Shown here piece after piece: positions 6,001-21,907 of a stretch of 23,014 bases of DNA. The first letter of the stretch is position 1, and every line of letters begins with the position of its first letter. The notes beneath the pieces were generated by a model that saw nothing but the letters and a program-made list of their open reading frames with translations, was not told the DNA's origin and did no database searches. Source of the DNA: an uncultured virus (IMG/VR IMGVR_UViG_3300034375_009390) (lineage: Duplodnaviria > Heunggongvirae > Uroviricota > Caudoviricetes); the IMG/VR virus record IMGVR_UViG_3300034375_009390; one strand, written 5' to 3'. The translations under genes and the position numbers were made by a program.

Positions 6001-6015
6001 TGTCCAACAACCTCC

Positions 6016-6803: not shown

Positions 6804-6804
6804 G

Positions 6805-7570: not shown

Positions 7571-7598
7571 CGCGCTGCCCTAAGTATCAGTATCTTAA

Positions 7599-7922: not shown

Positions 7923-7924
7923 GA

Positions 7925-8692: not shown

Positions 8693-8735
8693 GACAAATT
8701 AAAGCTGCTAGCATGTTAACACCGTCTTAGATTCA

Positions 8736-9870: not shown

Positions 9871-9871
9871 G

Positions 9872-10273
9872 TCAAACAAAAGCCACGCGGTCTGTGGACG
9901 AGTCTGAGCACAGATATACCATCCCAGGAGCCCACTCCTCCAACTTACCTGTCAGGTCACTCTTAACGATGTAGAAGGGTTTACGGGTTCCCGTTTTAGT
10001 TCGAGACTCACCGTAGTCAACAATCACCCCGGTTCGATTTGGTCCGCCAAGATTTGCACTGGGCTTACGCTTACCCACGCGGTCTCCAATTTGAAACTTC
10101 ATCTTTGGTTTGCGAGAGGACATGTTTTTAAGACAGTTGTTTGCGTCTAAAACCGCAAAAACTGCCCGCATTCGATGGAGAGATGAAAGAGTCTCATCTT
10201 TAAACTCATCAGACCAAAACGCATCGACACAAGCAACCAGAAGATCACGCTCAGATAACTTCGTTGAGCTCAT
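9872..10273 (-). CDS. Hypothetical protein (C-terminal SH3/KOW-like, KFQIGDRV...)
   Basis: 133-aa ORF in the minus-strand operon. Confidence 0.65.
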   Translation of the reverse strand: MSSTKLSERDLLVACVDAFWSDEFKDETLSSLHRMRAVFAVLDANNCLKNMSSRKPKMKFQIGDRVGKRKPSANLGGPNRTGVIVDYGESRTKTGTRKPFYIVKSDLTGKLEEWAPGMVYLCSDSSTDRVAFV

Positions 10274-10421
10274 GTGGAATGAAGTGTTCGCAATCTTGAT
10301 CTGACGTAGGGTCGAAAAAGTTGGCGTAACTTTGACGACGCCCAGGTTCAGCGATAAACCTATGGCAGTTCAAACGCCTGGGACAACCCTGTGAATTGGC
10401 GCAAAGCGTAATGTCAGCCAT
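10251..10421 (-). CDS. Small Cys-rich phage protein (56 aa)
   Basis: MADITLCANSQGCPRRLNCHRFIAEPGRRQSYANFFDPTSDQDCEHFIPHELNEVI; D-I-x-x-C...CP....C.R pattern common in phage small proteins. Below the ORF-track cutoff. Confidence 0.7.
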   Translation of the reverse strand: MADITLCANSQGCPRRLNCHRFIAEPGRRQSYANFFDPTSDQDCEHFIPHELNEVI

Positions 10422-10435
10422 AAGAAGATGCTGAA

Positions 10436-10508
10436 TAGCCGACCCCGGATTCGAACCGGGACTTGAGCGATTTTAAGTCGCTTGCCTCTGCCGTTGGGCT
10501 AGCCGGCC
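10436..10508 (-). tRNA. trnL: tRNA-Leu (anticodon UAA), short variable loop, CCA not encoded
   Basis: Minus strand GGCCGGC TA GCCCAACGGCAGAGGC A AGCGA CTTAAAA TCGCT CAAGT CCCGG TTCGAAT CCGGG GTCGGCT A; full 73-nt cloverleaf, anticodon at 10473-10475, discriminator A. Confidence 0.93.
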
Positions 10509-10705
10509 AGTGATGTCAGTATACAATCACTCTTGTGTTTCCGCCAGAAGTACAGTCTCTTCTCGTGTACTAGATGCCACGAGCTCACGAAACACACGTC
10601 ACCCCAGATCGAGGAGACCCGAACACAGTCGTCTTCGAGCTGCTCGACCGAGGTGCACGCATCCAGTTCAGTTGCCTCGGGATTCAAGGCGGGCTCGGTA
10701 GGCAT
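10499..10705 (-). CDS. Hypothetical protein
   Basis: 68-aa ORF; its stop codon falls inside the 5' end of the tRNA. Confidence 0.55.
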   Translation of the reverse strand: MPTEPALNPEATELDACTSVEQLEDDCVRVSSIWGDVCFVSSWHLVHEKRLYFWRKHKSDCILTSLAG

Positions 10706-10988
10706 CAGCTTCGACAGTGCAGGTCAGGTGAGCCCGGTTGCTATCAGACCGGACACCCTGGTTCACGAAGTTTAGTATGCACCGTTCGTAGTGCTGACGG
10801 CTCAACTTTGCGTTTTCGTTAAAAATCGGGCTGTTCTGCTTGATGAACGCAGCCCCCAGAACAAAAACGACTAGGAAGGTTGACCCAGCAAGTGCAGCCA
10901 GGATTGAGACACCAATAAGATCTGGGGTCCGCCACACGGCAGCAGTCTTAACCAGATCGCGGGAATCAAGACGGACGCGGGTGTTCAT
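10668..10988 (-). CDS. Hypothetical membrane protein
   Basis: Hydrophobic segment LIGVSILAALAGSTFLVVFVLGAAFI; ATG at 10988 lies downstream of the putative promoter at 11013-11024. Confidence 0.6.
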   Translation of the reverse strand: MNTRVRLDSRDLVKTAAVWRTPDLIGVSILAALAGSTFLVVFVLGAAFIKQNSPIFNENAKLSRQHYERCILNFVNQGVRSDSNRAHLTCTVEADAYRARLESRGN

Positions 10989-11012
10989 GTGATTTGGGTG
11001 TGATCTGTGATT

Positions 11013-11047
11013 ATGGTAGCACACTATGCGGCGGCCCCGGTAACGGG
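11013..11047 (-). promoter_or_regulatory. Putative extended -10 promoter (GTGTGC-TACCAT) preceded by a short hairpin and GCCGCCGCA motif
   Basis: Minus strand CCCG-TTAC-CGGG-GCCGCCGCA-TA-GTGTGC-TACCAT; the same GTGTGCTA core recurs at 13722 and 19977. Confidence 0.55.
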
Positions 11048-11104
11048 CTTTATTGCTGCGCCCACAGACTTTGCATTATTATGCTGCTAGCAACGAACTG
11101 ACAC

Positions 11105-11722
11105 ATGTCCGTCTTACTGGATGAGAAATATGAGATTACTCATGACTGGTATACGAACCTGACTCGGAGCTATGAAGCGCTGCAATCCGAGCCACGCGCC
11201 AAAAAGCTTAATTTCAAACCTGATTCTAAGCGACTCATTCTCGAAATCGGTATCTACGAGGGCGCTTCTACAGTTTGGTGGTCCGACAACTTCCTAGAAC
11301 ACCCCGAAAGCCGCTTGATCACGATCGATCCTTTCACCGGCTCGGACGAACATATTGCCAGTCCTTCACAGTACCCAACCCTAAACCGTATCGAGCAAAT
11401 CGCTCGGACCAACGTCGCCCGCAGCAAACAACCCGGCAAGGTCGACATTCGCAAGGGTCTCAGCTGGAACCTGTTCCCAGACCTGCTTGACGACCTCGAA
11501 CAGGGTCTCGACATCCTCTACATCGACGGATCCCACGAAACCGTGGCTGTCATGCGCGACCTAACTCTGTTCTACCCCTACGTAAAACCCGGTGGCGCCG
11601 TAATCATCGACGATTACGCGTGGGACAGCGTTAAATCCGGCGTCGATGCCTGCGTTGCATCCTTTATGGACGTAGAAAACGGCTTCTGCTGCTTCAACCA
11701 GCTCTGGACAATCAAAAAATGA
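11105..11722 (+). CDS. Class I SAM-dependent methyltransferase (Methyltransf_24-like)
   Basis: ILEIGIYEGAST, IDPF, DILYIDGSH and VKPGGAVIIDDY motifs. Confidence 0.9.
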   Translation: MSVLLDEKYEITHDWYTNLTRSYEALQSEPRAKKLNFKPDSKRLILEIGIYEGASTVWWSDNFLEHPESRLITIDPFTGSDEHIASPSQYPTLNRIEQIARTNVARSKQPGKVDIRKGLSWNLFPDLLDDLEQGLDILYIDGSHETVAVMRDLTLFYPYVKPGGAVIIDDYAWDSVKSGVDACVASFMDVENGFCCFNQLWTIKK

Positions 11723-12600
11723 CCCGATTTAACGTAATCTGCACCGGATCCGGCATTCATAAATGGGGCAAATCCTGGGTCGAGCACATGCTCAGCCATC
11801 TGAACTGCAAATTCCACTATTTAACCCCCTCAGATGACATCCCACTCCTAGAAAAGTGTATTGTCGTCACCAACACGACGGAATCTTACTTTTACATTCG
11901 CCGTTTACAGCAGGCCCACCTCAAATACGGCGTCATTTTGCTGTCCGACGAGTGCCTCGACTCCTCATTGGCGTTTTTAAATAACCCAGAGTGCGTGTTT
12001 CTGGCCCGAAACTACGTACACCCAGGCTGTTACCGAAACTTTAAAGTGTTTCACTTCGGGCTCGGCTACAAAAACGAGTTCGAGAAGTACGCAAACCCAC
12101 GCCGAACCGCATCAAACCGCGAGTTTCTGTGGAGTTTCACCGGTTCGCTGAAGGCGGATCGACAACACGCCCTCGAAGTCTTCTCCCAATTCGAACCAAA
12201 CTTCATGTACCTTGTCGAAAAGTTCGACGACCCGGAATATTTAACTACACAAAAATACGCCCAAACCCTGAACGACAGCATTTTCGTTCTTGCACCAGCC
12301 GGTGGGGCGAGCAACGACTCGTTCAGGATTTACGAAGCTCTGGAATGCGGAGCAATTCCGGTCGTGATGCGCAACACGCCACACCTACAGATCATGCCGA
12401 GCTACTGGCACGGGATCTTCCCAGGTTCAGATTTGCCGTTTGTCGTAGCAGACACGTGGGAAGAAGCTGCCGAACAAGTCCAATCGCTAATCAACGACAA
12501 CCACGTCGAACTCGTTCGCAAAGAGTGTATGGATTTCTGGCGCAGCTGGAAAAAGTCGTGGAGGCTCGAATTCGAAAAACGAGCCGCCAGTCTCATTTAA
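11719..12600 (+). CDS. Exostosin/GT47-like glycosyltransferase
   Basis: WSFTGS and Y...LNDSIFVLAPAGG...DSFRIYEALECGAIPVV; ATGA-coupled to the methyltransferase. Confidence 0.8.
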   Translation: MTRFNVICTGSGIHKWGKSWVEHMLSHLNCKFHYLTPSDDIPLLEKCIVVTNTTESYFYIRRLQQAHLKYGVILLSDECLDSSLAFLNNPECVFLARNYVHPGCYRNFKVFHFGLGYKNEFEKYANPRRTASNREFLWSFTGSLKADRQHALEVFSQFEPNFMYLVEKFDDPEYLTTQKYAQTLNDSIFVLAPAGGASNDSFRIYEALECGAIPVVMRNTPHLQIMPSYWHGIFPGSDLPFVVADTWEEAAEQVQSLINDNHVELVRKECMDFWRSWKKSWRLEFEKRAASLI

Positions 12601-12755: not shown

Positions 12756-12912
12756 TTTTATCCCAACTCATGTACGTACTCAGACGATGGCGGTCGACGT
12801 TGGCTTGGAACTTAGCCACGGTCGTCGGATTCACGCCGCTATTTAACTTTATCAGCTTCGCAAGCTGAACAACGATGGGGACGTCGCCCATCACGGAGGG
12901 GTCTGCTTCCAC
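12733..12912 (-). CDS. Hypothetical protein (59 aa)
   Basis: GTG start; MEADPSVMGDVPIVVQLAKLIKLNSGVNPTTVAKFQANVDRHRLSTYMSWDKNGELEIR; fills the gap in the minus-strand run. Start uncertain. Confidence 0.55.
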   Translation of the reverse strand: MEADPSVMGDVPIVVQLAKLIKLNSGVNPTTVAKFQANVDRHRLSTYMSWDKNGELEIR

Positions 12913-12952
12913 AACGGGCGCTTAAATCCCTCTTAATTTACTCCCAACCGAA

Positions 12953-13114
12953 TCAAAAAACGGATGGTCCTTCGGCAGTTACAGCAGGACGGTAACGAAC
13001 ACCCCGATAGCAAAGCCAGAGCGTGGCGCGATGCACAAGCGACCACCAAGCTAGGTGGTTCTTGTGATGCTGTTCGCGATCATATGTAACACCGCGATAC
13101 GTAATTGTTGTCAC
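12953..13114 (-). CDS. DUF4278-like small protein (53 aa)
   Basis: MTTITYRGVTYDREQHHKNHLAWWSLVHRATLWLCYRGVRYRPAVTAEGPSVF; two YRGVxY repeats typical of cyanobacterial/cyanophage DUF4278. Not in the ORF track. Confidence 0.8.
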   Translation of the reverse strand: MTTITYRGVTYDREQHHKNHLAWWSLVHRATLWLCYRGVRYRPAVTAEGPSVF

Positions 13115-13147
13115 TACAGTTCAGCAACTGTAGTTATTCTAAAGACT

Positions 13148-13161
13148 GTAACGTGAGCTAC
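13148..13161. promoter_or_regulatory. NtcA-type box GTA-N8-TAC next to the -10 element of the DUF4278-like gene
   Basis: tGTAacgtgagcTACt; on the minus strand it lies 6 nt before TAGAAT (13141-13136). Confidence 0.55.
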
Positions 13162-13201
13162 TTAGTTTAGGGTGTTACAAGATGAGTTAAGAAAACCTTA
13201 G

Positions 13202-13429
13202 TTACACACCCTTAAGCATCCCACGCTGACGAAGCAACTCGATCAAGCTTCCTCCGGGAGCGTTCTCTAAAAGCTCGTTCATACGGCGATCGTCCCGCCG
13301 TTGATTGACCAGATCACGAAACTGATCTTGATCAAGAGGGAAAGAAACGTCACCGTCACCGGTAACACCAGCAATCATCTGCTCGGCGATGACTTTATCG
13401 AGGAACTGCTTAGCGATGTCGCCGGGCAT
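13202..13429 (-). CDS. Hypothetical protein
   Basis: 75-aa ORF with ATG start. Confidence 0.65.
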   Translation of the reverse strand: MPGDIAKQFLDKVIAEQMIAGVTGDGDVSFPLDQDQFRDLVNQRRDDRRMNELLENAPGGSLIELLRQRGMLKGV

Positions 13430-13502
13430 GTCGTTAAAAATACCTGAGTTAACTTTAGCGTGTAAAAGATCCTAGGATTAAATCGACCTACATCTCCCCA
13501 AA

Positions 13503-13697
13503 GTGACTCGGGAGTGGAATACACCCACGCGTGAACCGTGGAATACAGCGATTAAGACTGCACTAGACACTCTAGACAAACATAATCAGTTTTATTTTAA
13601 AACAAACGATACAAAACACTTGATTTTAGCTCAATTACTACGAGATTACGTAAATTATCTTAAAAATTTGATCACGGAGACCGAAGACCAGCCCTAA
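13503..13697 (+). CDS. Small cyanophage-type protein (REWNTP.REPWN)
   Basis: 64 aa, GTG start; N-terminal motif recalled from cyanophage hypothetical proteins, not checked by search. Confidence 0.7.
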   Translation: MTREWNTPTREPWNTAIKTALDTLDKHNQFYFKTNDTKHLILAQLLRDYVNYLKNLITETEDQP

Positions 13698-13699
13698 CT

Positions 13700-13733
13700 C
13701 CGCTTCGCGGGCGCCTTCATGGTGTGCTATAGT
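13700..13733 (+). promoter_or_regulatory. Triloop hairpin plus GCGCC motif and extended -10 (GTGTGC-TATAGT)
   Basis: CCGC-TTC-GCGG-GCGCC-TTCATG-GTGTGC-TATAGT, 25 nt before the ATG at 13759. Confidence 0.6.
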
Positions 13734-13758
13734 AAGCACGTAGTCACATCACAAGCAC

Positions 13759-13863
13759 ATGCGCACCTACAAAGTCCGTCTCGGCGTCTCTGGTCGTTCA
13801 GTCGGTAGCCGCACGGGAAGAAAAACCTCTTCTAGCTGGAGCAAGCGCGTCCGCTGGACCTGA
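13759..13863 (+). CDS. Very basic 34-aa peptide
   Basis: MRTYKVRLGVSGRSVGSRTGRKTSSSWSKRVRWT, bracketed by a promoter-like site and a terminator. Confidence 0.55.
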   Translation: MRTYKVRLGVSGRSVGSRTGRKTSSSWSKRVRWT

Positions 13864-13874
13864 AAAGTTTGACG

Positions 13875-13902
13875 AGTCGCCCCACGCGGGCGATTTTTTT
13901 TT
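13875..13902 (+). terminator. Rho-independent terminator
   Basis: AGTCGCCC-CACGC-GGGCGATT stem-loop running into T9 (13894-13902). Confidence 0.85.
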
Positions 13903-14074
13903 CGACAAGCGGCTGATTGTATACTGACACTCAAAAGTTTTACCTCAATTTCCCAGCAAGATACCCATACCCTTCTCGCCCGGGGCGTCGTCGAAAGGCT
14001 CTATTTAAAAAAAAGGCGAATTGCGGGCAGGATTGCGCATACATGTAAACCATTTACATTTATATTTAGGCCCC

Positions 14075-14182
14075 CGCGTGCGTGCGCGTGTACATGTGCG
14101 CGTGTGCGCCTGCGTGTACGCGTGTGCGCGTATATACGCGCGTGGGTGTGCGCGTTACATTCGCGCGTGCGGACGCGTGCGC
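14075..14182. repeat. Alternating purine-pyrimidine (CG/TG/TA) low-complexity tract with central palindrome
   Basis: Unbroken alternation at 14075-14109 and 14111-14144 plus shorter runs; perfect palindrome GCGCGTATATACGCGC at 14126-14141. Confidence 0.9.
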
Positions 14183-14217
14183 CCGGTTCTTGTTACCTAC
14201 CAGCAAGCCCCGGAGAG

Positions 14218-14277
14218 TGTGCCAATCAACTATCCGGCACAAGACTGTTGACTCCCTGCACTGATCCGGCATACCTT
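14218..14277 (+). promoter_or_regulatory. Sigma70-type early promoter with upstream inverted repeat
   Basis: TGTGCC-N12-GGCACA (14218-14241), -35 TTGACT (14248-14253), 18-nt spacer, -10 TACCTT (14272-14277). Confidence 0.6.
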
Positions 14278-14317
14278 GTGGTCACTGGAGGAACGGGGTG
14301 AGAGCCACGCCGCCAGG

Positions 14318-14330
14318 GCACCTGGACAAC
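14318..14330 (+). promoter_or_regulatory. boxA-like antitermination element 1
   Basis: GCACCTGGACAAC directly after a CTGG...CCAG-closed hairpin (boxB-like position). Confidence 0.5.
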
Positions 14331-14466
14331 CGAAGAGGAACCGCCGGGCCGAACCAGCCCCGCAACTGCCGCCGATGGTAGGGAGAACATCCCCGAAGTG
14401 TAGGCGATGGCAGACGTGGTGTGCCGGAACGTGAAGCAGCGGATCCTTAAAGGTAACTAGGTGAGA

Positions 14467-14479
14467 GAACCTTGACAAT
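14467..14479 (+). promoter_or_regulatory. boxA-like antitermination element 2
   Basis: GAACCTTGACAAT matches the cyanobacterial rrn boxA pattern GAACCTTGA(A/C)AA. Confidence 0.6.
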
Positions 14480-15105
14480 CTAAATAGTTAGTCGTGCTGA
14501 GATAGTTTGCACGGAAAGCCTAAGGTATGGCTAACTGTTTTACATAATGTGGCACCGTCAAGAGACGGAACTAGGGGTGCGAGCGATCCCCCGAGCACAA
14601 TAGAGTTGCAACCCGACTCGCTAAGTGTGCACGGTGCCGTATGTCAGCAGGTATCTTGTCTGTAACTAAGGAAATGTATCGGCGTTAAACATTAGCCACG
14701 CTCGCCACGTGGCGACTGAATACAACCTACATGCTGTCCGTATGTAGTTAGTTACAGTACACAAGCTGTGTCCAGAGTATCTGTCCTTAGTGCAGGTACG
14801 CTGGACAGACTACCTAAGCTCCACTGCACCGTCTGTGCACGATGGCAGCGCAGGATTATATAGTTTGTGTGCACAATTGTGTGCTGTAACTAACTACATG
14901 CAGCAGTTTAGTTTCAGTTAGCTGGCCCGACTTTTAGTTGGGGAAGTCCAGCTAACGCCTAGCGTATTGTCGCTTGGTATGTATCAGGATCAAGTTAGAT
15001 CATTCTTGATCACAGACTGTAGACTCTCTCCCCAAGCTTATCAGTTTGGTGAGGGATTCACTCCCTCTTTGTTGTTAGCTGCCAGCTCTATTGCTGGTGA
15101 ATGTT

Positions 15106-15414
15106 ATGAACATCCGCACGAACAATGTTCCTCGCGATCTGATGCACTTGTGCGACTTTAGCCCATCAGATCAAGACAAGATCCGCAAGCAATACGATTG
15201 GATGGATCCTAATGATCTTGAGTGTAACTATGGTTTCTTTAAATATCGTGGTTGCATTTATCATCTGCAAGAGTTTCTAACTACAGAGAATGTAGCGTCC
15301 GGTGCTCTTACTGAATGGGATGGATGCCTCGGCGATTCATATTTCAGCGGCACACTTATCAAGCTCGCCGACAACGACTGCGACCGTGTGATCGTAGGTC
15401 GTTACTTCTGCTGA
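15106..15414 (+). CDS. Hypothetical early phage protein
   Basis: MNIRTNNVPRDL...FFKYRG..YHLQEF...WDG...DSYFSG; first gene of the plus-strand array. ATG at 15106 preferred. Confidence 0.8.
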   Translation: MNIRTNNVPRDLMHLCDFSPSDQDKIRKQYDWMDPNDLECNYGFFKYRGCIYHLQEFLTTENVASGALTEWDGCLGDSYFSGTLIKLADNDCDRVIVGRYFC

Positions 15415-15418
15415 TTAA

Positions 15419-15440
15419 CTGTAACTAATCCAACGCAATC
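15419..15440 (+). repeat. Start-associated intergenic repeat, copy 1
   Basis: CTGTAACTAATCCAACGCAATC between the stop at 15414 and the ATG at 15446. Confidence 0.9.
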
Positions 15441-15445
15441 AAACC

Positions 15446-15703
15446 ATGACTGAACTGCAAACTACTGTGTACACTCTGCCCGCACACTGGGCCAGCATTC
15501 TGATCAACCACGATTACACCGGCACAAGTGACGAAGAAGAACAAGAGATTAGTAACTTTATCGACGGTGAATTCGGTGAGTCTCTGTTCTGTACTGTGTG
15601 CCTAACTGATAACGACAGCGAACCCGAGTTCCGTAAGTATCATGACGCACAACCTTATGGTGTGCTTGCTTGTGACTGCCTGGACTACACATTCATTCAC
15701 TGA
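15446..15703 (+). CDS. Hypothetical acidic phage protein
   Basis: 85 aa, YTLPAHWASILIN.D.TG pattern; preceded by the repeat. Confidence 0.8.
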   Translation: MTELQTTVYTLPAHWASILINHDYTGTSDEEEQEISNFIDGEFGESLFCTVCLTDNDSEPEFRKYHDAQPYGVLACDCLDYTFIH

Positions 15704-15707
15704 TCAA

Positions 15708-15729
15708 CTGTAACTAACCCAACACAATC
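15708..15729 (+). repeat. Start-associated intergenic repeat, copy 2
   Basis: CTGTAACTAACCCAACACAATC, identical to 16118-16139. Confidence 0.92.
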
Positions 15730-15734
15730 TGATC

Positions 15735-15950
15735 ATGACCAAAGAGTCTTACTACTTTGTCGCTGAACGTACAACAACTCGCCGTGGTTGTACTCAAGAT
15801 AAGCAGGAACTTATCTGCATCAACGCCGATAGTTTCCACGCTGCTGATAAGTGGATCAACGCCAACTACAAAGGTTGGATTCATTATCACGTCACCGAAC
15901 CCGCGCCTTATCTGTTCACTGCCACCAACTTTTGCGCTTACTCTGCCTGA
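15735..15950 (+). CDS. Hypothetical protein
   Basis: 71 aa; preceded by the repeat. Confidence 0.75.
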   Translation: MTKESYYFVAERTTTRRGCTQDKQELICINADSFHAADKWINANYKGWIHYHVTEPAPYLFTATNFCAYSA

Positions 15951-15952
15951 TT

Positions 15953-16117
15953 ATGACCTACTACATCAACCGCCAAGCTGGCCGTTATCACGAAACGGTC
16001 GATGAGTTTGTGTCACGTTCTGAAGCAGAACGTATGTGTAAAGAGTACCAATTCGGCGAGCACGGTAGAGCTTACTTCTACGTCTCTCGTGTTGCACGTC
16101 CTAACTGGACTGTCTGA
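15953..16117 (+). CDS. Hypothetical phage protein (54 aa)
   Basis: MTYYINRQAGRYHETVDEFVSRSEAERMCKEY...; 3' part of track ORF 15851..16117, ATG 2 nt after the previous stop. Confidence 0.75.
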   Translation: MTYYINRQAGRYHETVDEFVSRSEAERMCKEYQFGEHGRAYFYVSRVARPNWTV

Positions 16118-16139
16118 CTGTAACTAACCCAACACAATC
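16118..16139 (+). repeat. Start-associated intergenic repeat, copy 3
   Basis: CTGTAACTAACCCAACACAATC immediately after the TGA ending at 16117. Confidence 0.92.
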
Positions 16140-16150
16140 ACATTAACATC

Positions 16151-16423
16151 ATGGCAACCATTCAACATCTCTGTGCTCGCAACGATGTCAACGGCAACCC
16201 ACAACGTTTGTATGTTCTATCTGTAGACGGTGAGCAGATCGCTGCGTGGGATGAAGGCTACCTAGGTCACCACGCTATGCCTGGTATCTGGCGCGATGCT
16301 GCATACAATGCAGAGCGTATTGATTGCAGCGTGGCACTGTATCGCAAACTATTGCGTACACTTCCTTCACCCGATTGGGCTCACGATGTGCCAGGTTATG
16401 CACATCTCCGCGAGCACGTTTGA
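16151..16423 (+). CDS. Hypothetical phage protein
   Basis: 90 aa, NDVNGNPQRLYV...AAWDEGYLG; preceded by the repeat. Confidence 0.8.
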   Translation: MATIQHLCARNDVNGNPQRLYVLSVDGEQIAAWDEGYLGHHAMPGIWRDAAYNAERIDCSVALYRKLLRTLPSPDWAHDVPGYAHLREHV

Positions 16424-16458
16424 TCAATTCACTGTCATCAATTCCCCTGCATCTGCCT

Positions 16459-16473
16459 CCGTAACTAACCCAA
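16459..16473 (+). repeat. Start-associated intergenic repeat, copy 4 (partial)
   Basis: CCGTAACTAACCCAA before the ATG at 16487. Confidence 0.8.
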
Positions 16474-16486
16474 TCGCGCCCTAATT

Positions 16487-16681
16487 ATGTACATCGACAA
16501 CACACAACTTGACCGTGAATTCATGCGTCGCATGATACGTGCGTATGAACAGGATCTGCTGCAGTTAGTCAGCGAAACCCCAGATCACCCTGGTGGTGAC
16601 TGGGCACGCGAACATCTAGCCAAACTAGAAGAACTGCGCGGACTTACATTCAGCTCATTCACTCAAACTGTTACCTTCTGA
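16487..16681 (+). CDS. Hypothetical protein
   Basis: 64-aa ORF in the array. Confidence 0.7.
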   Translation: MYIDNTQLDREFMRRMIRAYEQDLLQLVSETPDHPGGDWAREHLAKLEELRGLTFSSFTQTVTF

Positions 16682-16683
16682 TC

Positions 16684-16899
16684 ATGTCTTACAACAGCAT
16701 GTCCAACTTCCACAAAGATCAGATCTTGCACGTAGTTAGTAACTACATGACATCAGAGATGCGACGCATAATGATGCGGGAGTGTCCGGCAGCATACAAC
16801 GCACTGTGCGGACGTACAGTTGTAACTTCTCAGGTAGAAGACACAGGCCGTAAGGTTATCGAACGTCCGGAGGATGAAGGAGCCATAACCTTTAACTAG
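16684..16899 (+). CDS. Hypothetical protein
   Basis: 71-aa ORF, 2 nt after the previous stop. Confidence 0.7.
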   Translation: MSYNSMSNFHKDQILHVVSNYMTSEMRRIMMRECPAAYNALCGRTVVTSQVEDTGRKVIERPEDEGAITFN

Positions 16900-16900
16900 A

Positions 16901-16922
16901 CTCGCTCCGCGAGGCGCCCTCA
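16901..16922 (+). promoter_or_regulatory. Triloop hairpin plus GCGCCCTCA motif
   Basis: CTCGC-TCC-GCGAG-GCGCCCTCA, intergenic. Confidence 0.65.
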
Positions 16923-16940
16923 CACAATTACATCAACATC

Positions 16941-17399
16941 ATGGGACTCGATCAGTACCTTCAAGCTGACTATTACTTCTCCGACACATGGGATAACAAC
17001 AATGGCAAAGCTGCTGAGATCGCCCGAATCTGTGATCTTCCCTCTGGCTTAGTTAGATCTAAACAAGTATCTGTGCGCATCACATTGATGCACTGGCGCA
17101 ACACACAGTGGCTGCACGATTACATAATCGAACACGCACAAGCTGATTGTGATGCTTCTGAATGTTATGTAGACACGAAAGTTCTAGAGGATTTCATTGT
17201 TGACGCCACGCGGGTGATCGACGGCGAGGATCCTATTGATTGTATGTTTCCTAACCCTGATTGGAGTGATCTACTTAAACACTACGACCGTAAACACACA
17301 GACTACGATCGTTTAGTCCTTGTTGAGACACGCGACAAGTTTATCGAGATAATTAACACACTCCCCTGCGTTGACTTCTACTACCGTTCAAGTTGCTAA
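16941..17399 (+). CDS. Conserved phage hypothetical protein (MGLD.YL / WR...LH family)
   Basis: MGLDQYL...MHWRNTQWLHDYI...FYYRSS pattern. Confidence 0.8.
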   Translation: MGLDQYLQADYYFSDTWDNNNGKAAEIARICDLPSGLVRSKQVSVRITLMHWRNTQWLHDYIIEHAQADCDASECYVDTKVLEDFIVDATRVIDGEDPIDCMFPNPDWSDLLKHYDRKHTDYDRLVLVETRDKFIEIINTLPCVDFYYRSSC

Positions 17400-17403
17400 C
17401 ACA

Positions 17404-17604
17404 ATGATCACACTAACTACACTTGACGAATATGGTGTAACTTACGCCGTAGACACATTCCTATCTGTTGAAGACGCTAAAGATGCTCTGTGGCAGATGG
17501 AATGCACACTAGATGAAATGCCACACGGCGCTCGTTATTACGAATTGCAGGACGCAATCGCGGATCTTCGTTCCCAAATTACAGAGCATGAATCAAATGA
17601 CTAA
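17404..17604 (+). CDS. Hypothetical protein
   Basis: ATG at 17404 within track ORF 17371..17604. Confidence 0.7.
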   Translation: MITLTTLDEYGVTYAVDTFLSVEDAKDALWQMECTLDEMPHGARYYELQDAIADLRSQITEHESND

Positions 17605-17779
17605 GCAACAAGCCCTAACTGAGTTTCGGTGCCTTTGGGCTGATTCAGTTAGCTACGATCCTACATTGCGCAGAGACACTGCTGCAAAGCGTGAAGCATT
17701 TAGTGACTTCGTGAAGTTGTTAAATCAACAACGGCTAGTGTCTGATCGCCAAGTTTACACTTGGTCTAATCCTTTCTAA
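17597..17779 (+). CDS. Small cyanophage-type protein (MTK.QAL..F...AKREAF...W.NPF)
   Basis: ATG at 17597 within track ORF 17513..17779; overlaps the previous gene's end. Confidence 0.75.
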   Translation: MTKQQALTEFRCLWADSVSYDPTLRRDTAAKREAFSDFVKLLNQQRLVSDRQVYTWSNPF

Positions 17780-17784
17780 ACATC

Positions 17785-17961
17785 ATGCCCAATCACTTCC
17801 CTTACGACGTGTACAACCTGGACTCACACTCTCTGTCCTACCACGCTCTCGCACAATTCAGACAGATTCTCCTTAAAGAGAAGATGCCTCTCGACATTGT
17901 GGACACAATCGAGGATCGAATCATCCCAGCACTCGAACACATTGTGTCCAGCGACTACTAA
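17785..17961 (+). CDS. Hypothetical protein (58 aa)
   Basis: MPNHFPYDVYNLDSHSLSYHALAQFRQILLKEKMPLDIVDTIEDRIIPALEHIVSSDY; fills the gap, below the track cutoff. Confidence 0.7.
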   Translation: MPNHFPYDVYNLDSHSLSYHALAQFRQILLKEKMPLDIVDTIEDRIIPALEHIVSSDY

Positions 17962-18000
17962 CTTTTAACTAACCAAACACATCAACATCACATCAACGTC

Positions 18001-18348
18001 ATGCGTAAGATCGAAGCACAAATGCTGCAGGCTATTGCCAATAAGCAAGACTGGAAGTGCGACAACACTGAGGTTGTTGTAACGTACTTCGCCCACGCTG
18101 ATCGAATGATTGATCGTGCAACTGTTTACCTGCACGGCAGCCCGATTGCACAAGTCAGCCCCAATACAGTAACAGTGTGCGACTGTGGTTATCAGACCGC
18201 AACAACGAAGTCACGTATCAACACCATCTTGCGCGAACTGTGTGGTGGTGGTGTGTACCAGAGGAATCACAAGTGGTACGGCTACTCTAGTACCGAAACG
18301 GAATGGTTGATCGAGCCTAATTCCTCCTACTGTTTCGTGCGAGGCTAA
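18001..18348 (+). CDS. Cyanophage-type hypothetical protein (MRKIE.QM..AI)
   Basis: 115 aa, VYLHG..IA...G.QT.TTKSRIN.IL pattern; preceded by degenerate repeat TAACTAACCAAACAC (17966-17980). Confidence 0.85.
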   Translation: MRKIEAQMLQAIANKQDWKCDNTEVVVTYFAHADRMIDRATVYLHGSPIAQVSPNTVTVCDCGYQTATTKSRINTILRELCGGGVYQRNHKWYGYSSTETEWLIEPNSSYCFVRG

Positions 18349-18367
18349 AGCACTATCATCAATCCCT

Positions 18368-18403
18368 CCCAGCTTCGCTGGGGCCGCCCTCATAATGTAC
18401 AAT
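18368..18403 (+). promoter_or_regulatory. Triloop hairpin plus GCCGCCCTCA motif and -10-like TACAAT
   Basis: CCCAGC-TTC-GCTGGG-GCCGCCCTCA-TAATG-TACAAT, intergenic. Confidence 0.65.
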
Positions 18404-18423
18404 CAAGTGCATTTACTAACACC

Positions 18424-18672
18424 ATGAAACTTGTAAGCTCTAGGCACATCGACATTGCCAATCTCAAAGGCGCCATCGTAACTAACACAAACGGCGCTGA
18501 GTTCTACGTTCTCGGATTTGAGGTTGACGTTGAGTCCCACACGATCAACATCGTGATGCAACCAACTGACGGTAGTGGTCCAATAGGTTTACTGTGGGAT
18601 CATATTAAAGACTGGACAATCGCACTGCAGCCGATCCACTGGCTCAACGACATCCTGACAATTAGCAAATGA
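18424..18672 (+). CDS. Hypothetical protein
   Basis: 82-aa ORF. Confidence 0.7.
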   Translation: MKLVSSRHIDIANLKGAIVTNTNGAEFYVLGFEVDVESHTINIVMQPTDGSGPIGLLWDHIKDWTIALQPIHWLNDILTISK

Positions 18673-18929
18673 AACGCGCAGAACTAATCGACTTGTACGC
18701 TGACATCACCGTAAGCTCAATGGATTACAGCGAGCTTGAATCCTTTGTGTACAACATGATCGCCCAACAACTAGAAACAGAAACAGACAACAAGCTGGTC
18801 GATCGGTTTTACAAAGACATCTGCGAAAGCAAGCCCAAATACCTGTGGGATCTTGGACGCACGGTCTTAACGAAAGACGAAGTGCAAGCGTACCTTAACT
18901 CAACTTCCGTAACTAATCCAACCCACTAA
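18669..18929 (+). CDS. Hypothetical protein
   Basis: 86 aa, ATGA-coupled; 3' end runs through a repeat copy (18907-18922). Confidence 0.7.
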   Translation: MKRAELIDLYADITVSSMDYSELESFVYNMIAQQLETETDNKLVDRFYKDICESKPKYLWDLGRTVLTKDEVQAYLNSTSVTNPTH

Positions 18930-19198
18930 CCAAGTACTCATAGATAAACCCTGCGGCGAAACACATCATCAGCCACGTGCCAAGATCAAACGGTATATCG
19001 TACATAGGTAAGTAGAAATGCTTACCCTGTCAGTCTGGCCGTACATCATCAGCCTGTCTCGTATCGTTCACGACACATCATGAAACCCAGACACACTGGC
19101 AACATCCTTAAACATCTGCCCAACCCTTACAAACATCTCCTTTAACCCTGTGGGAGTTGACTGGGCGCCACGCTGCTCTCCCGCGAACTAAATTCACT

Positions 19199-19220
19199 CC
19201 GGCTTCGCCGGGCCGCCGCA
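19199..19220 (+). promoter_or_regulatory. Triloop hairpin plus GCCGCCGCA motif
   Basis: CCGGC-TTC-GCCGG-GCCGCCGCA, 12 nt before the ATG at 19233. Confidence 0.65.
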
Positions 19221-19232
19221 TTATTTACTACG

Positions 19233-19631
19233 ATGCCTTTCTCGCCTACACAACCTCCAGAAGACATAACTAAATGTCCCAAATGCGCGTCACACGCCTT
19301 TTATGTTCTTGAGACTCGCTCAAACAGAGAGTATACAAGACGTAGAAGATACTGCAAACAGTGTGAGTATCGTGCAACATTTTACGAAGTCTCAAAGGAG
19401 CGTTACCTGCAGTTTCAAGCTGACTCTAAAGCGTTGAGCCGGTTACTTGATCAACTCCAAAGTCTCTTGGATACAAGAGGTGAACAATCTCAAGAAGTTA
19501 AAGTTCCGAAAGTTAAGTCTATACCTTGTAAGGATTGCAGTTACGCGCCTGAAGGAAAGTGTTCATTCGAATACCCGGAGGCGTTCACATTAGAAGCACA
19601 CGATTGCTCTATGTTCATACAAAAGCACTAA
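19233..19631 (+). CDS. Zinc-ribbon protein with NrdR-like N-terminal domain and a second Cys cluster
   Basis: CPKC...VLETR....TRRRRYCKQC.YR.TFYE, then PCKDC...CSF.YPE.....DC; no ATP-cone seen. Confidence 0.8.
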   Translation: MPFSPTQPPEDITKCPKCASHAFYVLETRSNREYTRRRRYCKQCEYRATFYEVSKERYLQFQADSKALSRLLDQLQSLLDTRGEQSQEVKVPKVKSIPCKDCSYAPEGKCSFEYPEAFTLEAHDCSMFIQKH

Positions 19632-19771
19632 GAGGAAAATCTCGTTAAGTAGAAGCTAGTTTACAGAAAGTTTTTACTAGTCAGTGGTTCGATACGCTAT
19701 AACACTAAGTTAAATAATGGAAAGAAGACTGAGCGACGCTGTGATAAATTAGCTTCGCTTTCCTCTCAACC

Positions 19772-19945
19772 ATGCGTAAGCAGGAATCTGCGGTTAAAGA
19801 GTTCGACATCTTCAGTAACCATAAGGGGCCGTGGGGTTTCTTGTGCTCAGTTGAAGCAAACAACGAAAACGATGCAAAACTGATTGCGATGAGGGAGCAC
19901 CACATCTTCCATCACAATCAAGTCTCCGTCTACCCGAAGAAATAA
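19772..19945 (+). CDS. Hypothetical protein (57 aa)
   Basis: MRKQESAVKEFDIFSNHKGPWGFLCSVEANNENDAKLIAMREHHIFHHNQVSVYPKK; co-oriented with neighbours, below the track cutoff. Confidence 0.7.
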   Translation: MRKQESAVKEFDIFSNHKGPWGFLCSVEANNENDAKLIAMREHHIFHHNQVSVYPKK

Positions 19946-19976
19946 CCTGTGTTAAACCATGTACAGGGTGGTGGCT

Positions 19977-19988
19977 GTGTGCTACCAT
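19977..19988 (+). promoter_or_regulatory. Putative extended -10 promoter GTGTGC-TACCAT
   Basis: Identical 12-mer to the minus-strand site at 11013-11024; intergenic, upstream of 20046. Confidence 0.55.
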
Positions 19989-20045
19989 TCTGTATAAGGC
20001 GGCACCGGCCTTTAACGTGGCGCACCAACCTCACTTCGTATCACC

Positions 20046-20468
20046 GTGAACATCAAAACATCTGATCTCGTCTGTCTCGGCGAGCGTGCAGCTGCCACGT
20101 GGGACGAACGCGATCGTGCGCAAACAGCCTTAGACGTAGCTTTCGGAACTCCTTTCGAAGCTGCGAAAGACAACCTGCTGCGTGACATCACGATTGCAGA
20201 ATCTTCCGGGGTCGACCTTTCGATCTTTAGCGGCACTGACAGCCGTTTTAAGTTTCCTGATCTTCACACGAACATCGTCGTTCGCATCTCTCGTAAACCC
20301 ACGCCGCACGCCAAACTCGAAAAGCTTGCCGACAAAGTGGCGAAGCTTGAGCAGGATCTTAAAGTTGCCAAGATGCAACTTAAGCACACAGCCGAACAAC
20401 TCATCGCACAGCAAGAGTGCGACGAGATCACCGACAAAATTACCCTCGCCTTCACCCGTCTCAAATGA
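20046..20468 (+). CDS. Hypothetical protein with C-terminal coiled coil
   Basis: 140 aa, GTG start. Confidence 0.75.
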   Translation: MNIKTSDLVCLGERAAATWDERDRAQTALDVAFGTPFEAAKDNLLRDITIAESSGVDLSIFSGTDSRFKFPDLHTNIVVRISRKPTPHAKLEKLADKVAKLEQDLKVAKMQLKHTAEQLIAQQECDEITDKITLAFTRLK

Positions 20469-20626
20469 TGACAAAGAAGCTGCAGGATTTCGCACTGTTT
20501 ACAGTAGCGAGCACGATCATGGCGATCACAGCTTTCGGTGCTCTTGGTCTTGATCCAAGCGAAGCACACCACTCTAAAAGTTGTGAATCAACACAAAGCC
20601 TTGACGTCAAGTGCTCCAAGCACTAA
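20465..20626 (+). CDS. Small membrane/exported protein
   Basis: MMTKKLQDFALFTVASTIMAITAFGALG...; ATGA-coupled. Confidence 0.6.
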   Translation: MMTKKLQDFALFTVASTIMAITAFGALGLDPSEAHHSKSCESTQSLDVKCSKH

Positions 20627-20647
20627 CCTACGCTAGAGCTTGAGCTC

Positions 20648-20679
20648 GGATCCCTTGTGCTACACAAGGGATTCTCTTT
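20648..20679 (+). terminator. Strong intergenic hairpin (terminator or processing/stability stem)
   Basis: GGATCCCTTGTG-CTA-CACAAGGGATTC followed by TCTTT; weak U tail. Confidence 0.5.
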
Positions 20680-20710
20680 ATCCACCTCACAGTCACTCCC
20701 GTAACTAAAC

Positions 20711-21907
20711 GTGAACCACTACCTTCTGTCCTGCTCCATTTCTGCGGACGTCCGCCAATCCGTACAGATTAAATTCGACGACCTCAAACTGCCTCAACAA
20801 GTTATCGACACACTCGAAGCGAACAATACGGTCAGCATTCGACCGCACCTTTCAAATGCACTGAAAGCAAAGCTCGACGCACTGCGTGTTAAGCAACGTC
20901 AACTGTACGATGCCTACTGCATTCATTACGGGGACGCTCACTTCGTTACAGCTTCTTACTTTCAGGAAGCTAACGAGATGATCAAAGAGATTAAGCGCGA
21001 CGCAGAGGGATACAACGAAGAACTCAAAGGTATGTGGGAACAGGAGTATGCACGCTGGCAAGAAACAGCCAGCGGAATTCTTCGACCGCTGTTCTCTGAA
21101 GATACAGAGTACTCAATCGCATTCGATGCGTACATGCGGTTTTTCCCCACGCGGGAGGAATACCGTAAGCCTATTCGTGTGTCGGTTCTCGGTCCCCTTC
21201 CTGTATCTCTTCAGAAAGTTGAGGCGCCTGTCGATGGTGACATTGATTCCGTTCTCGCTTACGAAAACGCGATCAACACACAACAAGTTCTCGAAGCCGC
21301 TAAAGCATCTGCCTCTGACAAAGCTTTGACACTCGGAGCTCAGCTGCTCGATGATCTAGACGTGCGTAGCGTTACTAAGATCGGGAGGCAACAGACGGGA
21401 TCAGAAAAGAAACGTGGTAGCTGGCAGATTACTGCAGAGAAACTCAAGCTCATCAGTGACAGCGTACCGGCTTTTAGTGATCTCGCTGTCCTCGCAGATC
21501 GTCTCCTGGAATCTGGCAACAACCTACAGTCTCCCGATCGTTCTATACGGACGAAGGCTACGGAGAACTTCTACGCAGTCCAGGAAGAAATCCGGACAGA
21601 GCTTTCTAACATCTGCGGTAGCCACAGCAGCTCCAAGGGTTTAGAGAAACTGCAGCAGTCTCTTGCACTGAGTTCACAGTACAAACTCCTCTGCGACAAG
21701 ATCAAAACTGCCGAAAGTACAAACACTCTGAATCTTCTGGTCAAAGACGCAAACACTGAGATCGACATCTACGAACAGCGTTCTAAGCAACTCCGCAAGC
21801 TGATCTCGCAACGACGCGAGCTCATCCAAGCTGCAGGAGATAACCTCGATGAACTCATCGAAGGTGTTAACTCACAAATCGACGAACAACCTGAAGCCGA
21901 CTTCTAA
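20711..21907 (+). CDS. DUF3150-like helical protein
   Basis: 398 aa, GTG start directly after CCGTAACTAAAC. Overall pattern (...HFV....EIKRD...EY..W...FPTREEY...) and position before an AAA ATPase resemble DUF3150. Family call by eye. Confidence 0.55.
   Translation: MNHYLLSCSISADVRQSVQIKFDDLKLPQQVIDTLEANNTVSIRPHLSNALKAKLDALRVKQRQLYDAYCIHYGDAHFVTASYFQEANEMIKEIKRDAEGYNEELKGMWEQEYARWQETASGILRPLFSEDTEYSIAFDAYMRFFPTREEYRKPIRVSVLGPLPVSLQKVEAPVDGDIDSVLAYENAINTQQVLEAAKASASDKALTLGAQLLDDLDVRSVTKIGRQQTGSEKKRGSWQITAEKLKLISDSVPAFSDLAVLADRLLESGNNLQSPDRSIRTKATENFYAVQEEIRTELSNICGSHSSSKGLEKLQQSLALSSQYKLLCDKIKTAESTNTLNLLVKDANTEIDIYEQRSKQLRKLISQRRELIQAAGDNLDELIEGVNSQIDEQPEADF

Follow-up and report, generated by a model that had tools for sequence, protein, structure and literature searches.

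RNase P makes the small antisense RNA of the phage systems P4 CI and P1 c4. In phage T4, many early messages carry a common short motif in their start regions, which allows class-wide shut-off; it is read by the phage proteins RegA and RegB and has no antisense or helix copy. A further comparison comes from rrn leaders and spacers, which combine boxA antitermination with RNase III processing stalks, and from the early RNase III sites of T7. As described in PMC4825925, the antisense sequences of P4 CI and P1/P7 c4 lie in the untranslated head of their own operon, with sense targets up- and downstream (seqA-CI-seqC in P4), and are exposed in a small RNA processed from the untranslated primary transcript. 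PeSL cassettes of T4-type phages (PMC2839356, PMC4122927) combine an early promoter with a terminator stem-loop, recur as short repeats between small early genes of a plastic region, and serve as exchange points.

We analysed a 23,014-nucleotide stretch of DNA (the window) from a 48,990-bp record, estimated to be 61% complete, of an S-EIV1-like phage infecting picocyanobacteria. The part considered here is best explained as the folded untranslated head of the phage's early transcript. As in P4 and P1/P7, this head holds an antisense sequence with sense targets on both sides: along the transcript come a sense copy (14660), the antisense arm, and further sense copies. Unlike those systems, which have two targets and an exposed antisense, it has up to eight start-proximal targets and an antisense locked in a 25-bp helix; to our knowledge, the host group also lacks Rho. 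Like rrn leaders, it has two exact copies of host boxA upstream and a long perfect helix enclosing a folded RNA that heads a polycistronic early transcript, but the core of the phage helix is a specific word reused before cistrons, and cleavage is here only proposed. Neither the rrn leader and spacer of the host nor its 16S contains the word. Pairing with 16S rRNA was rejected as a candidate function, as no GUU[AG]GUU[AG] site, even with one mismatch, occurs in the 16S of five picocyanobacteria. With PeSL cassettes, the phage repeat shares its position between small early genes of a plastic region and homology blocks that end at the repeat; unlike them, it is read from a single strand, its antisense partner lies in the leader RNA, and neither promoter nor terminator stem-loop was found at the repeats. 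It differs from the T4 motifs in its antisense helix copy, and no RegA/RegB-like protein was found in this phage.

A conserved leader RNA downstream of boxA-like boxes

The elements at the head of the transcript are:
14318..14334, + strand: boxA-like box 1, GCACCTGGACAACCGAA, host rrn leader type; matches the boxA region of the Vulcanococcus limneticus rrn leader at 17/17 positions
14466..14478, + strand: boxA-like box 2, AGAACCTTGACAA, host 16S-23S spacer type; 13/13 identical to the boxA in the spacer of three freshwater Synechococcus-type genomes
14552..14617, + strand: conserved leader element common to the T7-like cyanopodoviruses S-CBP1 and DSL-LC07 (blastn, 84% over 62-67 nt)
14681..14958, + strand: rod-like folded leader RNA (minimum free energy, MFE, outline), with core hairpin 14733-14907; from MFE and alignments A1 and A2 with RNAalifold
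14740..14764, + strand: 25-bp basal helix, 5' arm; the antisense word GTTAGTTACAG spans 14747-14757
14877..14901, + strand: 25-bp basal helix, 3' arm; the sense word CTGTAACTAAC spans 14884-14894
15022..15077, + strand: attenuator-like element, CUCUCC...GAGGGAUUCACUCCCUC then UUUGUUGUU, with a terminator-like match at 15051-15067; conserved in 8/8 aligned relatives

The + strand encodes a conserved RNA fold. Positions 14730-14910 have an MFE of -87.8 kcal/mol (z = -7.7), which none of 200 shuffles equalled, and the 25-bp stem proposed in the first-pass annotation, in which 14740-14764 pairs with 14877-14901, is real. The core hairpin is kept with strong covariation in about 28 related phages, which are mutually related and several of which were retrieved with a pattern taken from the helix arm itself. 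In a 20-sequence alignment, 95% of cells are paired, compared with 25-39% in a control with slid partners, and the hairpin covariation score of 0.319 (shuffled, 0.146 +/- 0.012) was reached in 0 of 500 shuffles. The tip helices covary, tip helix 3 with both-side changes in 10 of 14 pairs, and G.U pairs of the hairpin are confined to the + strand. No Rfam family matches the leader RNA.

Judged by identity to host sequences, boxA signals of the rRNA type lie upstream of the leader RNA. The box 2 region is also identical (15/15) to a Prochlorococcus MAG, and the boxA pattern has only two matches in the 49-kb record, box 1 among them. At least one boxA-like box precedes the hairpin in 16 of the 18 relatives scanned, and two are kept in 10. 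The versions of the leader element in S-CBP1 and DSL-LC07 are non-coding, lie ahead of early genes, and follow a boxA-like box by about 25 nt. Six relatives (marine-type) carry a second attenuator-like element with GUUAGUUACAU on the + strand.

One word in the helix and before early genes

The basal helix pairs GUUAGUUA with UAACUAAC, and its 8-bp core is nearly invariant. In one arm comparison, the 5' arm core GTTAGTTA is exact in all 19 homologues and the 3' arm core TAACTAAC in 17 of 18 distinct versions. Both sides of the motif helix changed in only 1 of 11 pairs; adjoining stem positions covary freely, as do the 4-nt outer flanks of the arms (tgta/taca, gcag/ctgt, cagt/actg, taca/tgtg, tcta/tagg, and ttca/tagg). 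Copies of the word and neighbouring features are:
14660..14670, + strand: upstream sense copy CTGTAACTAAG, one mismatch
15127..15414, + strand: first early gene, with conserved GCTGGTGAATGTTATGAACATC start context and a leader of its own that lacks the motif
15419..15429, + strand: leader copy CTGTAACTAAT, one mismatch; ATG 15446, 16 nt on
15708..15718, + strand: leader copy CTGTAACTAAC, exact; ATG 15735, 16 nt on
16118..16128, + strand: leader copy CTGTAACTAAC, exact; ATG 16151, 22 nt on; homology blocks to relatives break here
16459..16469, + strand: leader copy CCGTAACTAAC, one mismatch; ATG 16487, 17 nt on
17963..17973, + strand: leader copy TTTTAACTAAC, two mismatches; ATG 18001 (Kyano_Gp96-family gene), 27 nt on
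18476..18486, + strand: copy TCGTAACTAAC, two mismatches, probably within a coding frame; context conserved in relatives
18907..18917, + strand: copy CCGTAACTAAT, two mismatches, at the end of ORF 18669-18929
20648..20674, + strand: terminator-like hairpin (12 pairs); the 398-aa gene follows about 35 nt on
20699..20709, + strand: copy CCGTAACTAAA, two mismatches; the 398-aa gene (20711-21907) starts with GTG 1 nt on

The first-pass annotation was accurate in all its coordinates: GTTAGTTACAG is the exact reverse copy of CTGTAACTAAC, and sense copies are exact at 14884, 15708, and 16118, have one mismatch at 14660, 15419, and 16459, and have two at 17963, 18476, 18907, and 20699, where (G)TAACTAA is retained. 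Its claim that the 5' arm is the only reverse copy from 14.2 kb onward holds at up to one mismatch; at two, weak reverse matches appear at 14907 and 20941. One further reverse copy lies upstream, at 13197. In this phage, the repeat is longer than first stated (CTGTAACTAAY-CCAACRCAATC, then ATG 16-22 nt on).

Matches with up to two mismatches number 18, compared with 5.74 +/- 2.46 in 100 shuffles, none of which reached 18, and 10 of the 12 copies of the 8-mer GTAACTAA in the record are on the + strand. When the early regions of 17 phages are pooled (105 kb), the + strand holds 63 copies of TAACTAAC and the - strand 7 (expected, 2.8 and 1.6); 42 of the 63 + copies have an ATG-ORF start 0-35 nt downstream (13% for random positions). 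Leader copies are G-poor (G 16-17%) and more often unpaired (mean probability 0.73 vs 0.43, p = 9e-11). Of 54 related loci, 39 have TAACTAA within 40 nt upstream of the 398-aa gene start (30 of 40 when only distinct contexts are counted). UAACUAAC, which is confined to the early class and the first downstream gene, marks open, G-poor RNA that precedes many early-gene start codons, and that of this first conserved downstream gene, by 2-35 nt. Helix and leaders share one word, and the analysis supports a real, strand-specific, RNA-level, and family-wide link between them.

A DNA site, either an operator bound by some phage regulator or a promoter element of unusual type, with the arms as two inverted operators, seems very improbable. 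Non-coding copies do occur in both orientations, L008, L149, and L156 have inverted pairs of them, and the record encodes an HTH protein. Against this, intergenic copies are nearly all on the + strand (63 vs 7), arm flanks covary in a way that preserves RNA pairing, only the + strand tolerates G.U, the ATG lies anywhere from 2 to >30 nt away, and the 87 distinct contexts have no conserved -35 or -10 partner. No phage RNA polymerase was seen in the 49 kb, in a record estimated to be 61% complete.

The homology breaks bear on another reading, in which the word is the core of an intergenic linker (stop codon, TAACTAAC, CA-rich spacer, ATG) that bounds mobile early-gene cassettes and acts as a crossover point like the PeSL; the arms would stem from an inverted linker duplication, with no regulatory traffic between helix and leaders. 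Gene order is not the same in L007, where segments 15953-16132 and 16109-16445 of the window have changed places and the junctions fall at the word, and 28 of 93 homology-block ends fall within 30 nt of it (8.8% expected), compared with 13 of 93 for word-less gene starts (9.9% expected). Many copies have a CTGA stop 1-8 nt upstream, and the word supplies TAA in two more frames. If stops sufficed, however, TAG/TGA and other spacers would be expected, and none appear; neither a PeSL-like promoter nor a PeSL-like terminator stem occurs at the repeats. Descent alone does not account for the nearly frozen 8-bp core in about 28 versions beside covarying stem pairs, nor does a linker explain recurrent antisense copies in loops. 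We consider this reading unlikely.

Arms and leaders across relatives

In six versions (L166, L184, L192, L200, L222, and L218), the 3' arm has drifted to G.U-compatible letters and the 5' arm is still the exact complement of the unchanged leaders. L043 and L079 display UUAGUUACAU in an open hairpin loop of 14-15 nt, at an opening cost of +2.8 and +8.0 kcal/mol, respectively. These cases, the copies in the second attenuator-like element, and L173 (see below) count for an antisense link, in that the antisense word has an importance of its own.

The six versions, the open loops, and the second attenuator-like element also count against the possibility, which we hold to be rather doubtful, that UAACUAAC acts as a signal in single-stranded RNA, recognised by a protein or the ribosome. 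Its reader could be a translational repressor or nuclease for the early class, similar to RegA/RegB of T4, or the word could be a landing site of S1 type, in a host where Shine-Dalgarno pairing is rare; the helix would mask one copy, or an RNase III processing stalk would happen to contain it, and the 5' arm would be constrained merely by the need to pair with the masked copy. Open, G-poor leader copies adjoining start codons and the restriction to the early class and first downstream gene agree with this, as does the 25-bp perfect helix 3' of boxA, an arrangement that matches rrn processing stalks. In 7 of 11 versions, an AUG comes 3 nt after the 3' arm word, resembling a masked start site. 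The 14660 copy, found at the same place in L007, L008, L011, L016, L050, L149, L151, and L156, is mostly flanked by UUGUC...GRCAA, which could place it in a hairpin loop, and looks loop-displayed in most relatives. Yet the would-be masked 3' arm lost the word in the six versions that kept the 5' arm, the extra antisense copies in loops and in the second attenuator-like element would have no role, and none of the early genes was recognised as encoding an RNA-binding protein.

Arm and leader cores vary so rarely that the expected joint change of repeat and arm says little here, and the outcome is mostly negative: in the four lineages (ten phage versions) with changed arms, a leader had changed too at a single site, in L173. 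The L173 arms are GUUAGCUA/UAGCUAAC, and one leader has UAGCUAAC in place of the UAACUAAC of its counterpart in L176; this is one of four leader-type copies, the other three being unchanged. The 5' arm is GCUAGUUA (a C.A mismatch) in L204 and L220, whose leaders still read UAACUAAC, and also in L040, whose phage (read via locus L154) has at least one UAACUAAC leader. Leader copies are present without recognisable arms in L178, and the spacer between genes 1 and 2 lacks the word in L050 and L072 despite a kept helix. Copies per phage vary from 1 to 8 with the helix constant. Because leader words are flanked by CTG only in the window's clade and by TTT or CTT in other clades, family-wide complementarity is 8 nt rather than 11.

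The first-pass proposal of one docking site and many selectors stands as to the shared word, the accessible leaders, and the open loops of L043 and L079; it does not for the window, where the arm is locked, nor does joint change of arm and leaders mostly support it. Opening the window's 5' arm costs +21.1 kcal/mol, more than the -9.3 to -17.7 gained on leaders, so the intact RNA cannot dock, and this buried copy is the sole antisense in the window and most relatives. Word searches of outgroups L179-L181 found no + strand GTTAGTTA and 0-2 TAACTAAC, and S-EIVl has no GTAACTAA at all. Co-occurrence of antisense and leader words at clade level also counts, as a sequence pattern, for an antisense link.

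Possible control of early genes by the leader RNA

Our best guess, at a probability of about 0.35, is by analogy an antisense link like that of P4 CI and P1 c4, acting after processing of the helix. UAACUAAC would be an RNA-level mark of the early class, for which the leader RNA would store a complementary 'anti-leader' strand. We infer that the long helix is cut or unwound, possibly as an rrn-like processing stalk cleaved in the manner of RNase III; in relatives with the strand in an open loop, no cut would be necessary. The freed strand would pair with leader words beside start codons and block ribosome entry, much as the P4 CI and P1 c4 RNAs act on targets of their own operons. The leader RNA may in this way control early genes by pairing, and the outcome would be a delayed, class-wide shut-off or tuning of the early genes.

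Layout of the leader region

The window corresponds to bases 6135-29148 of a 48,990-bp IMG/VR record estimated to be 61% complete, and its nearest isolate is Synechococcus phage S-EIVl (52.8% aa identity in TerL). Minus-strand genes in the left part encode a terminase, sugar and methyl transferases, a dCMP deaminase, and a tRNA-Leu(UAA); a big block of glycosyltransferase, glycoside phosphorylase, and methyltransferase genes beside the terminase (1744-12600) is unusual cargo at such a phage size. We found no convincing gene at 12.9-15.1 kb. Small plus-strand genes run from ~15.1 kb and are followed by genes for a 398-aa protein that matched no known family, a MoxR-type ATPase, a VWA protein, a family A DNA polymerase, and a D5-type primase/helicase. 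Comparison of the early proteins with PHROGs and Pfam returned no RNA-binding or nuclease domain. To our knowledge, almost nothing is known about early-gene timing in picocyanobacterial phages, and the matches listed for S-EIV1 and cyanophages in the literature were genome descriptions.

Features of the window, with matching positions in other phages
10435-10509, minus strand: tRNA-Leu(UAA)
14318-14334, plus strand: leader-type boxA, 17/17 identical to the boxA region of the Vulcanococcus limneticus rrn leader
14466-14478, plus strand: spacer-type boxA, matching the 16S-23S spacer boxA of three freshwater Synechococcus-type genomes at 13/13 positions
14552-14617: ~65-nt element common to S-CBP1 (L005 3001-3067) and DSL-LC07 (L006 4001-4062)
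14740-14764 and 14877-14901, plus strand: 5' and 3' arms of the 25-bp basal helix
15022-15077: attenuator-like element just before gene 1, CUCUCC...GAGGGAUUCACUCCCUC and a U-rich run

The two boxes are the only boxA matches in the 49-kb record and both lie on the plus strand; the spacer-type box also matches a Prochlorococcus MAG at 15/15 positions, and boxA in other cyanobacteria is GAACCTTGAAAA. Among 18 relatives with the hairpin region, 16 have at least one box upstream and ten have two. By sequence, these boxes suggest borrowed Nus-factor antitermination and point to a Synechococcus/Cyanobium-type host. The 65-nt element lies just before the early genes and ~25 nt after a boxA-like box in S-CBP1 and DSL-LC07, which are unrelated T7-like cyanopodoviruses, and DNA searches of isolate phages, for near and distant matches alike, returned nothing besides this 62-67-nt match. 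The GAGCGATCCC hairpin of the element resembles a host rrn leader segment upstream of boxA.

Six marine-type relatives (L200, L222, L218, L204, L205, and L220) carry a second attenuator-like copy downstream of the first, with GUUAGUUACAU inserted ahead of GAGGG. Terminator-like hairpins are seen at 15051-15067 and 20648-20674. The latter has 12 pairs and lies only ~35 nt ahead of the 398-aa gene, too close for a normal promoter to fit in between, and expression of the replication block may thus need read-through. We know of no Rho in picocyanobacterial hosts. An alternating purine-pyrimidine, (GCGTGT)-like tract (14064-14200), the source of spurious Rfam miRNA matches, could form Z-DNA; the related locus L141 has a similar tract near a TAACTAAC copy.

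A conserved structured RNA family

The basal stem of the leader RNA comprises 25 consecutive perfect pairs between the two arms, and the hairpin around it has a minimum free energy of -87.8 kcal/mol (z = -7.7); with longer flanks, the fold grows into a rod spanning ~14681-14958. We collected relatives with an extended-repeat scan (six loci), a scan with a 15-mer from the arm (111 loci, mostly chance matches, the true relatives being those with both arms), a scan with the 398-aa protein (54 loci), and a scan with a 16-mer from the start of gene 1 that is independent of the arms (42 loci). The element is present in 22 of the 42 16-mer loci; another 16 matched by chance and are unrelated, three have too little upstream DNA, and one (L218) bears an insertion; this insertion (1871-2236, minus strand) is a 121-aa HNH endonuclease gene (Pfam HNH, E = 1.2e-6) located in the hairpin tip, with both arms intact. 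A profile built on the hairpin detected it in 17 of the 54 loci anchored on the protein, most of the remainder being short of upstream DNA.

Eleven versions of the hairpin share 45 consensus pairs, 17 of which have compensatory changes. Across 20 versions and 32 pairs, 95% of cells are paired, compared with 25-39% when the partners are slid, and the covariation score is 0.319, a value reached in none of 500 shuffles (0.146 +/- 0.012). The U.G pairs found in nine and five of the 20 versions would be A.C on the opposite strand, which identifies the plus strand as the one that folds. A search of Rfam 15 returned only the tRNA at gathering score, and at E<=10 only chance miRNA and snoRNA matches at 12800-15500. 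This is a conserved structured RNA family that is new and absent from Rfam. A leader peptide after the 3' arm was rejected, as four of 11 versions have AUA in place of its AUG and the short frames vary.

Given the rrn-like layout of the leader, the 25-bp helix can naturally be read as a putative RNase III processing stalk. By analogy, stalks of the rrn and T7-early type are near-perfect helices of at least 20 bp in polycistronic leaders, and the helix is a candidate for this class.

The part of the stem that contains the antisense of the leader word, an 8-nt motif ahead of early-gene ATGs, is nearly frozen: both-side changes affect ten of 14 pairs in tip helix 3 and one of 11 in the motif helix, and four positions just outside the helix core covary. 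Among these versions, which are kin sequences and in part were retrieved via the arm itself, the antisense word GTTAGTTA is exact in all 19 homologues of one arm comparison and has an exact TAACTAAC partner in 17 of 18 distinct versions. With later finds, the helix is kept in about 28 distinct versions, with G.U or compensated changes. Eighteen are canonical; six have a changed 3' arm that maintains pairing through G.U (UAGCUAAC in L184, L192, L200, L222, and L218; UAGUUAAU in L166); three (L040, L204, and L220) have the 5' arm GCUAGUUA and a C.A mismatch; and in one (L173), both arms are changed and compensated (GUUAGCUA/UAGCUAAC) and the tip is cut down to a 25-nt loop.

A leader word at early-gene starts

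The positions of the repeat reported in the first-pass annotation were all correct. Exact matches to its 11-nt form CTGTAACTAAC lie at 14747 (reverse), 14884, 15708, and 16118, and imperfect ones at 14660, 15419, 16459, 17963, 18476, 18907, and 20699; with up to two mismatches, 18 matches were found compared with 5.7 +/- 2.5 in shuffles, none of which (0/100) reached 18. GTAACTAA occurs 12 times in the whole 48,990-bp record, ten times on the plus strand, and no word-type leader precedes the minus-strand structural genes anywhere in it. In the window phage CCAACRCAATC follows as part of the repeat, whose end lies 16-22 nt ahead of an ATG.

The word common to the family is TAACTAAC, and its CTG flank is specific to the window clade (TTT or CTT in other clades). 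Pooling the early regions of 17 phages (105 kb, partly redundant) gave 63 plus-strand and seven minus-strand copies of the word, versus 2.8 and 1.6 expected from base composition, and an ATG-initiated ORF of at least 40 codons begins 0-35 nt downstream of 42 of the 63 plus-strand copies, versus 13% of random positions. We set aside the fraction of plus-strand ORFs with the motif (41/390), which takes in spurious overlapping frames. TAACTAA precedes the 398-aa gene start in 39 of 54 loci and is absent in an outgroup of 46-49% identity. The initial observation is confirmed and generalised to the family. Nothing related was among the matches listed in the literature for TAACTAAC and phage.

S-EIVl lacks GTAACTAA, and its GTGTAACT matches were dismissed as coding repeats. 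Its early genes (L126/L127, ~23-44 kb, minus strand) have CA-rich leaders that lack both a Shine-Dalgarno sequence and the word, and a different, GCATGACATTAAACTGCT-like repeat, which may be a promoter, lies ~35 nt ahead of at least six early ATGs. Several early genes of DSL-LC07 (L006 4791-5979) have CA-rich leaders with ACTAAC directly ahead of the ATG, which in this unrelated cyanophage recalls the word in shortened form.

Across 87 distinct contexts, the only conserved flanks of the word are [T/G] before and C[C/A][C/A]A after it; G makes up 16-17% of these contexts, and many of the copies have a CTGA stop 1-8 nt upstream. It is very improbable that the word is a DNA site; no -35 or -10 is conserved across these contexts. 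A promoter scan returned seven sites versus 9.4 expected, none of them at the repeat, and a sigma-70 promoter at the repeats was rejected on both grounds. No phage RNA polymerase gene was found in the 49 kb of the record, estimated to be 61% complete, which speaks weakly against a promoter of that type. Picocyanobacterial hosts have few Shine-Dalgarno sites. Pairing of the word with 16S rRNA was also rejected: the 16S of three freshwater Synechococcus-type and two Prochlorococcus genomes has no GUU[AG]GUU[AG] site, even with one mismatch, and the only related finding was GUUGGUUA in 23S. The word is absent from host rrn leaders and spacers, save one-off near matches in one genome. At the RNA level, the word is predicted to be unpaired (0.73 versus 0.43, p = 9e-11). 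It is possible, if somewhat unlikely, that leaders and hairpin merely share a single-strand signal, for which the helix serves as a mask or stalk.

The word also coincides with boundaries between genes. Gene order is permuted relative to the related locus L007 with junctions at the word, and 28 of 93 homology-block ends have a word no more than 30 nt away (8.8% expected), compared with 13 of 93 for starts that lack it (9.9% expected). Since block ends and L007 junctions gather there, the word marks exchange points in a PeSL-like manner. PeSLs have been reported as exchange points (PMC2839356, PMC4122927); the likeness is that indels and replacements between relatives start and end at the repeat, whereas the window repeats lack the PeSL promoter and terminator. 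That the repeats are cassette boundaries and nothing else, with no regulatory traffic, is improbable.

Proposed pairing between the hairpin arm and the leaders

On one transcript, all on the plus strand, the order is sense (14660), antisense (14747), and sense again at 14884, 15419, 15708, 16118, 16459, and beyond. The first-pass annotation proposed that the antisense arm docks on many leaders, in cis or after processing. Docking by the intact window RNA fails energetically: opening the antisense word costs +21.1 kcal/mol, which exceeds the -9.3 to -17.7 kcal/mol gained in leader duplexes. L043 and L079 have a different hairpin in place of the first tip hairpin, with UUAGUUACAU in its loop; opening costs are only +2.8 and +8.0 kcal/mol, respectively, so docking would be favourable there.

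The proposed co-variation of arm and leaders is mostly negative or silent, as leaders remain UAACUAAC in the early regions listed for the 3'-variant phages L184, L200, L222, and L218 and in the 5'-arm variants L204 and L220. One case is suggestive: the L173 leader at 4809 is UAGCUAAC, as in its arms, and its counterpart in L176 is UAACUAAC; three other leader-type copies in L173 are unchanged. As to the joint occurrence of repeat and arm, L179-L181 have no plus-strand GTTAGTTA and 0-2 TAACTAAC, L178 has three leader-type copies and no recognisable arms, and L050 and L072 keep the helix and have a gene 1-gene 2 spacer without the word. Further plus-strand antisense copies lie in the second attenuator-like element of the six marine-type relatives, at a conserved intragenic site in L007, L011, and L043, and, in L008, L149, and L156, within an additional upstream hairpin, whose 3' arm the copy forms.

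Our preferred reading, to which we assign a probability of roughly 0.35, is an antisense link that acts after processing, modelled on the P4 CI RNA as presented in PMC4825925. As in P4 CI and P1 c4, target sites lie both upstream and downstream of the antisense on the same transcript; an accessible antisense segment, a further feature of these RNAs, is absent in the window and present only in the L043 and L079 variants. There is no sequence or structure homology to the curated family (Rfam 15), and P4 and P1 have two targets, whereas the window leader would govern many cistrons.

In a more specific and distinctly doubtful version of this antisense link, the stalk would store a guide for the whole early class. 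The leader RNA would be transcribed under borrowed boxA antitermination, a cut of the rrn-style stalk would free the GUUAGUUA strand, and this strand would dock on the UAACUAAC word ahead of many early cistrons, timing their translational shut-off or cleavage. The word would double as a crossover point at which early cassettes are swapped with control retained. The antisense reading predicts a stable leader fragment that ends in or carries GUUAGUUACAG. Among the 24 sequencing runs listed, none was an RNA run containing this stretch.

The analysis thus yields a new RNA family, a class-specific leader word, and a sequence-level link that joins both, in a lineage widespread in lakes and sea. If the link is not regulatory, the word still marks early-gene starts and cassette boundaries. 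If it is, a single antisense segment in the leader would control numerous cistrons within its own operon, which would explain the shared control of shuffled early cassettes.
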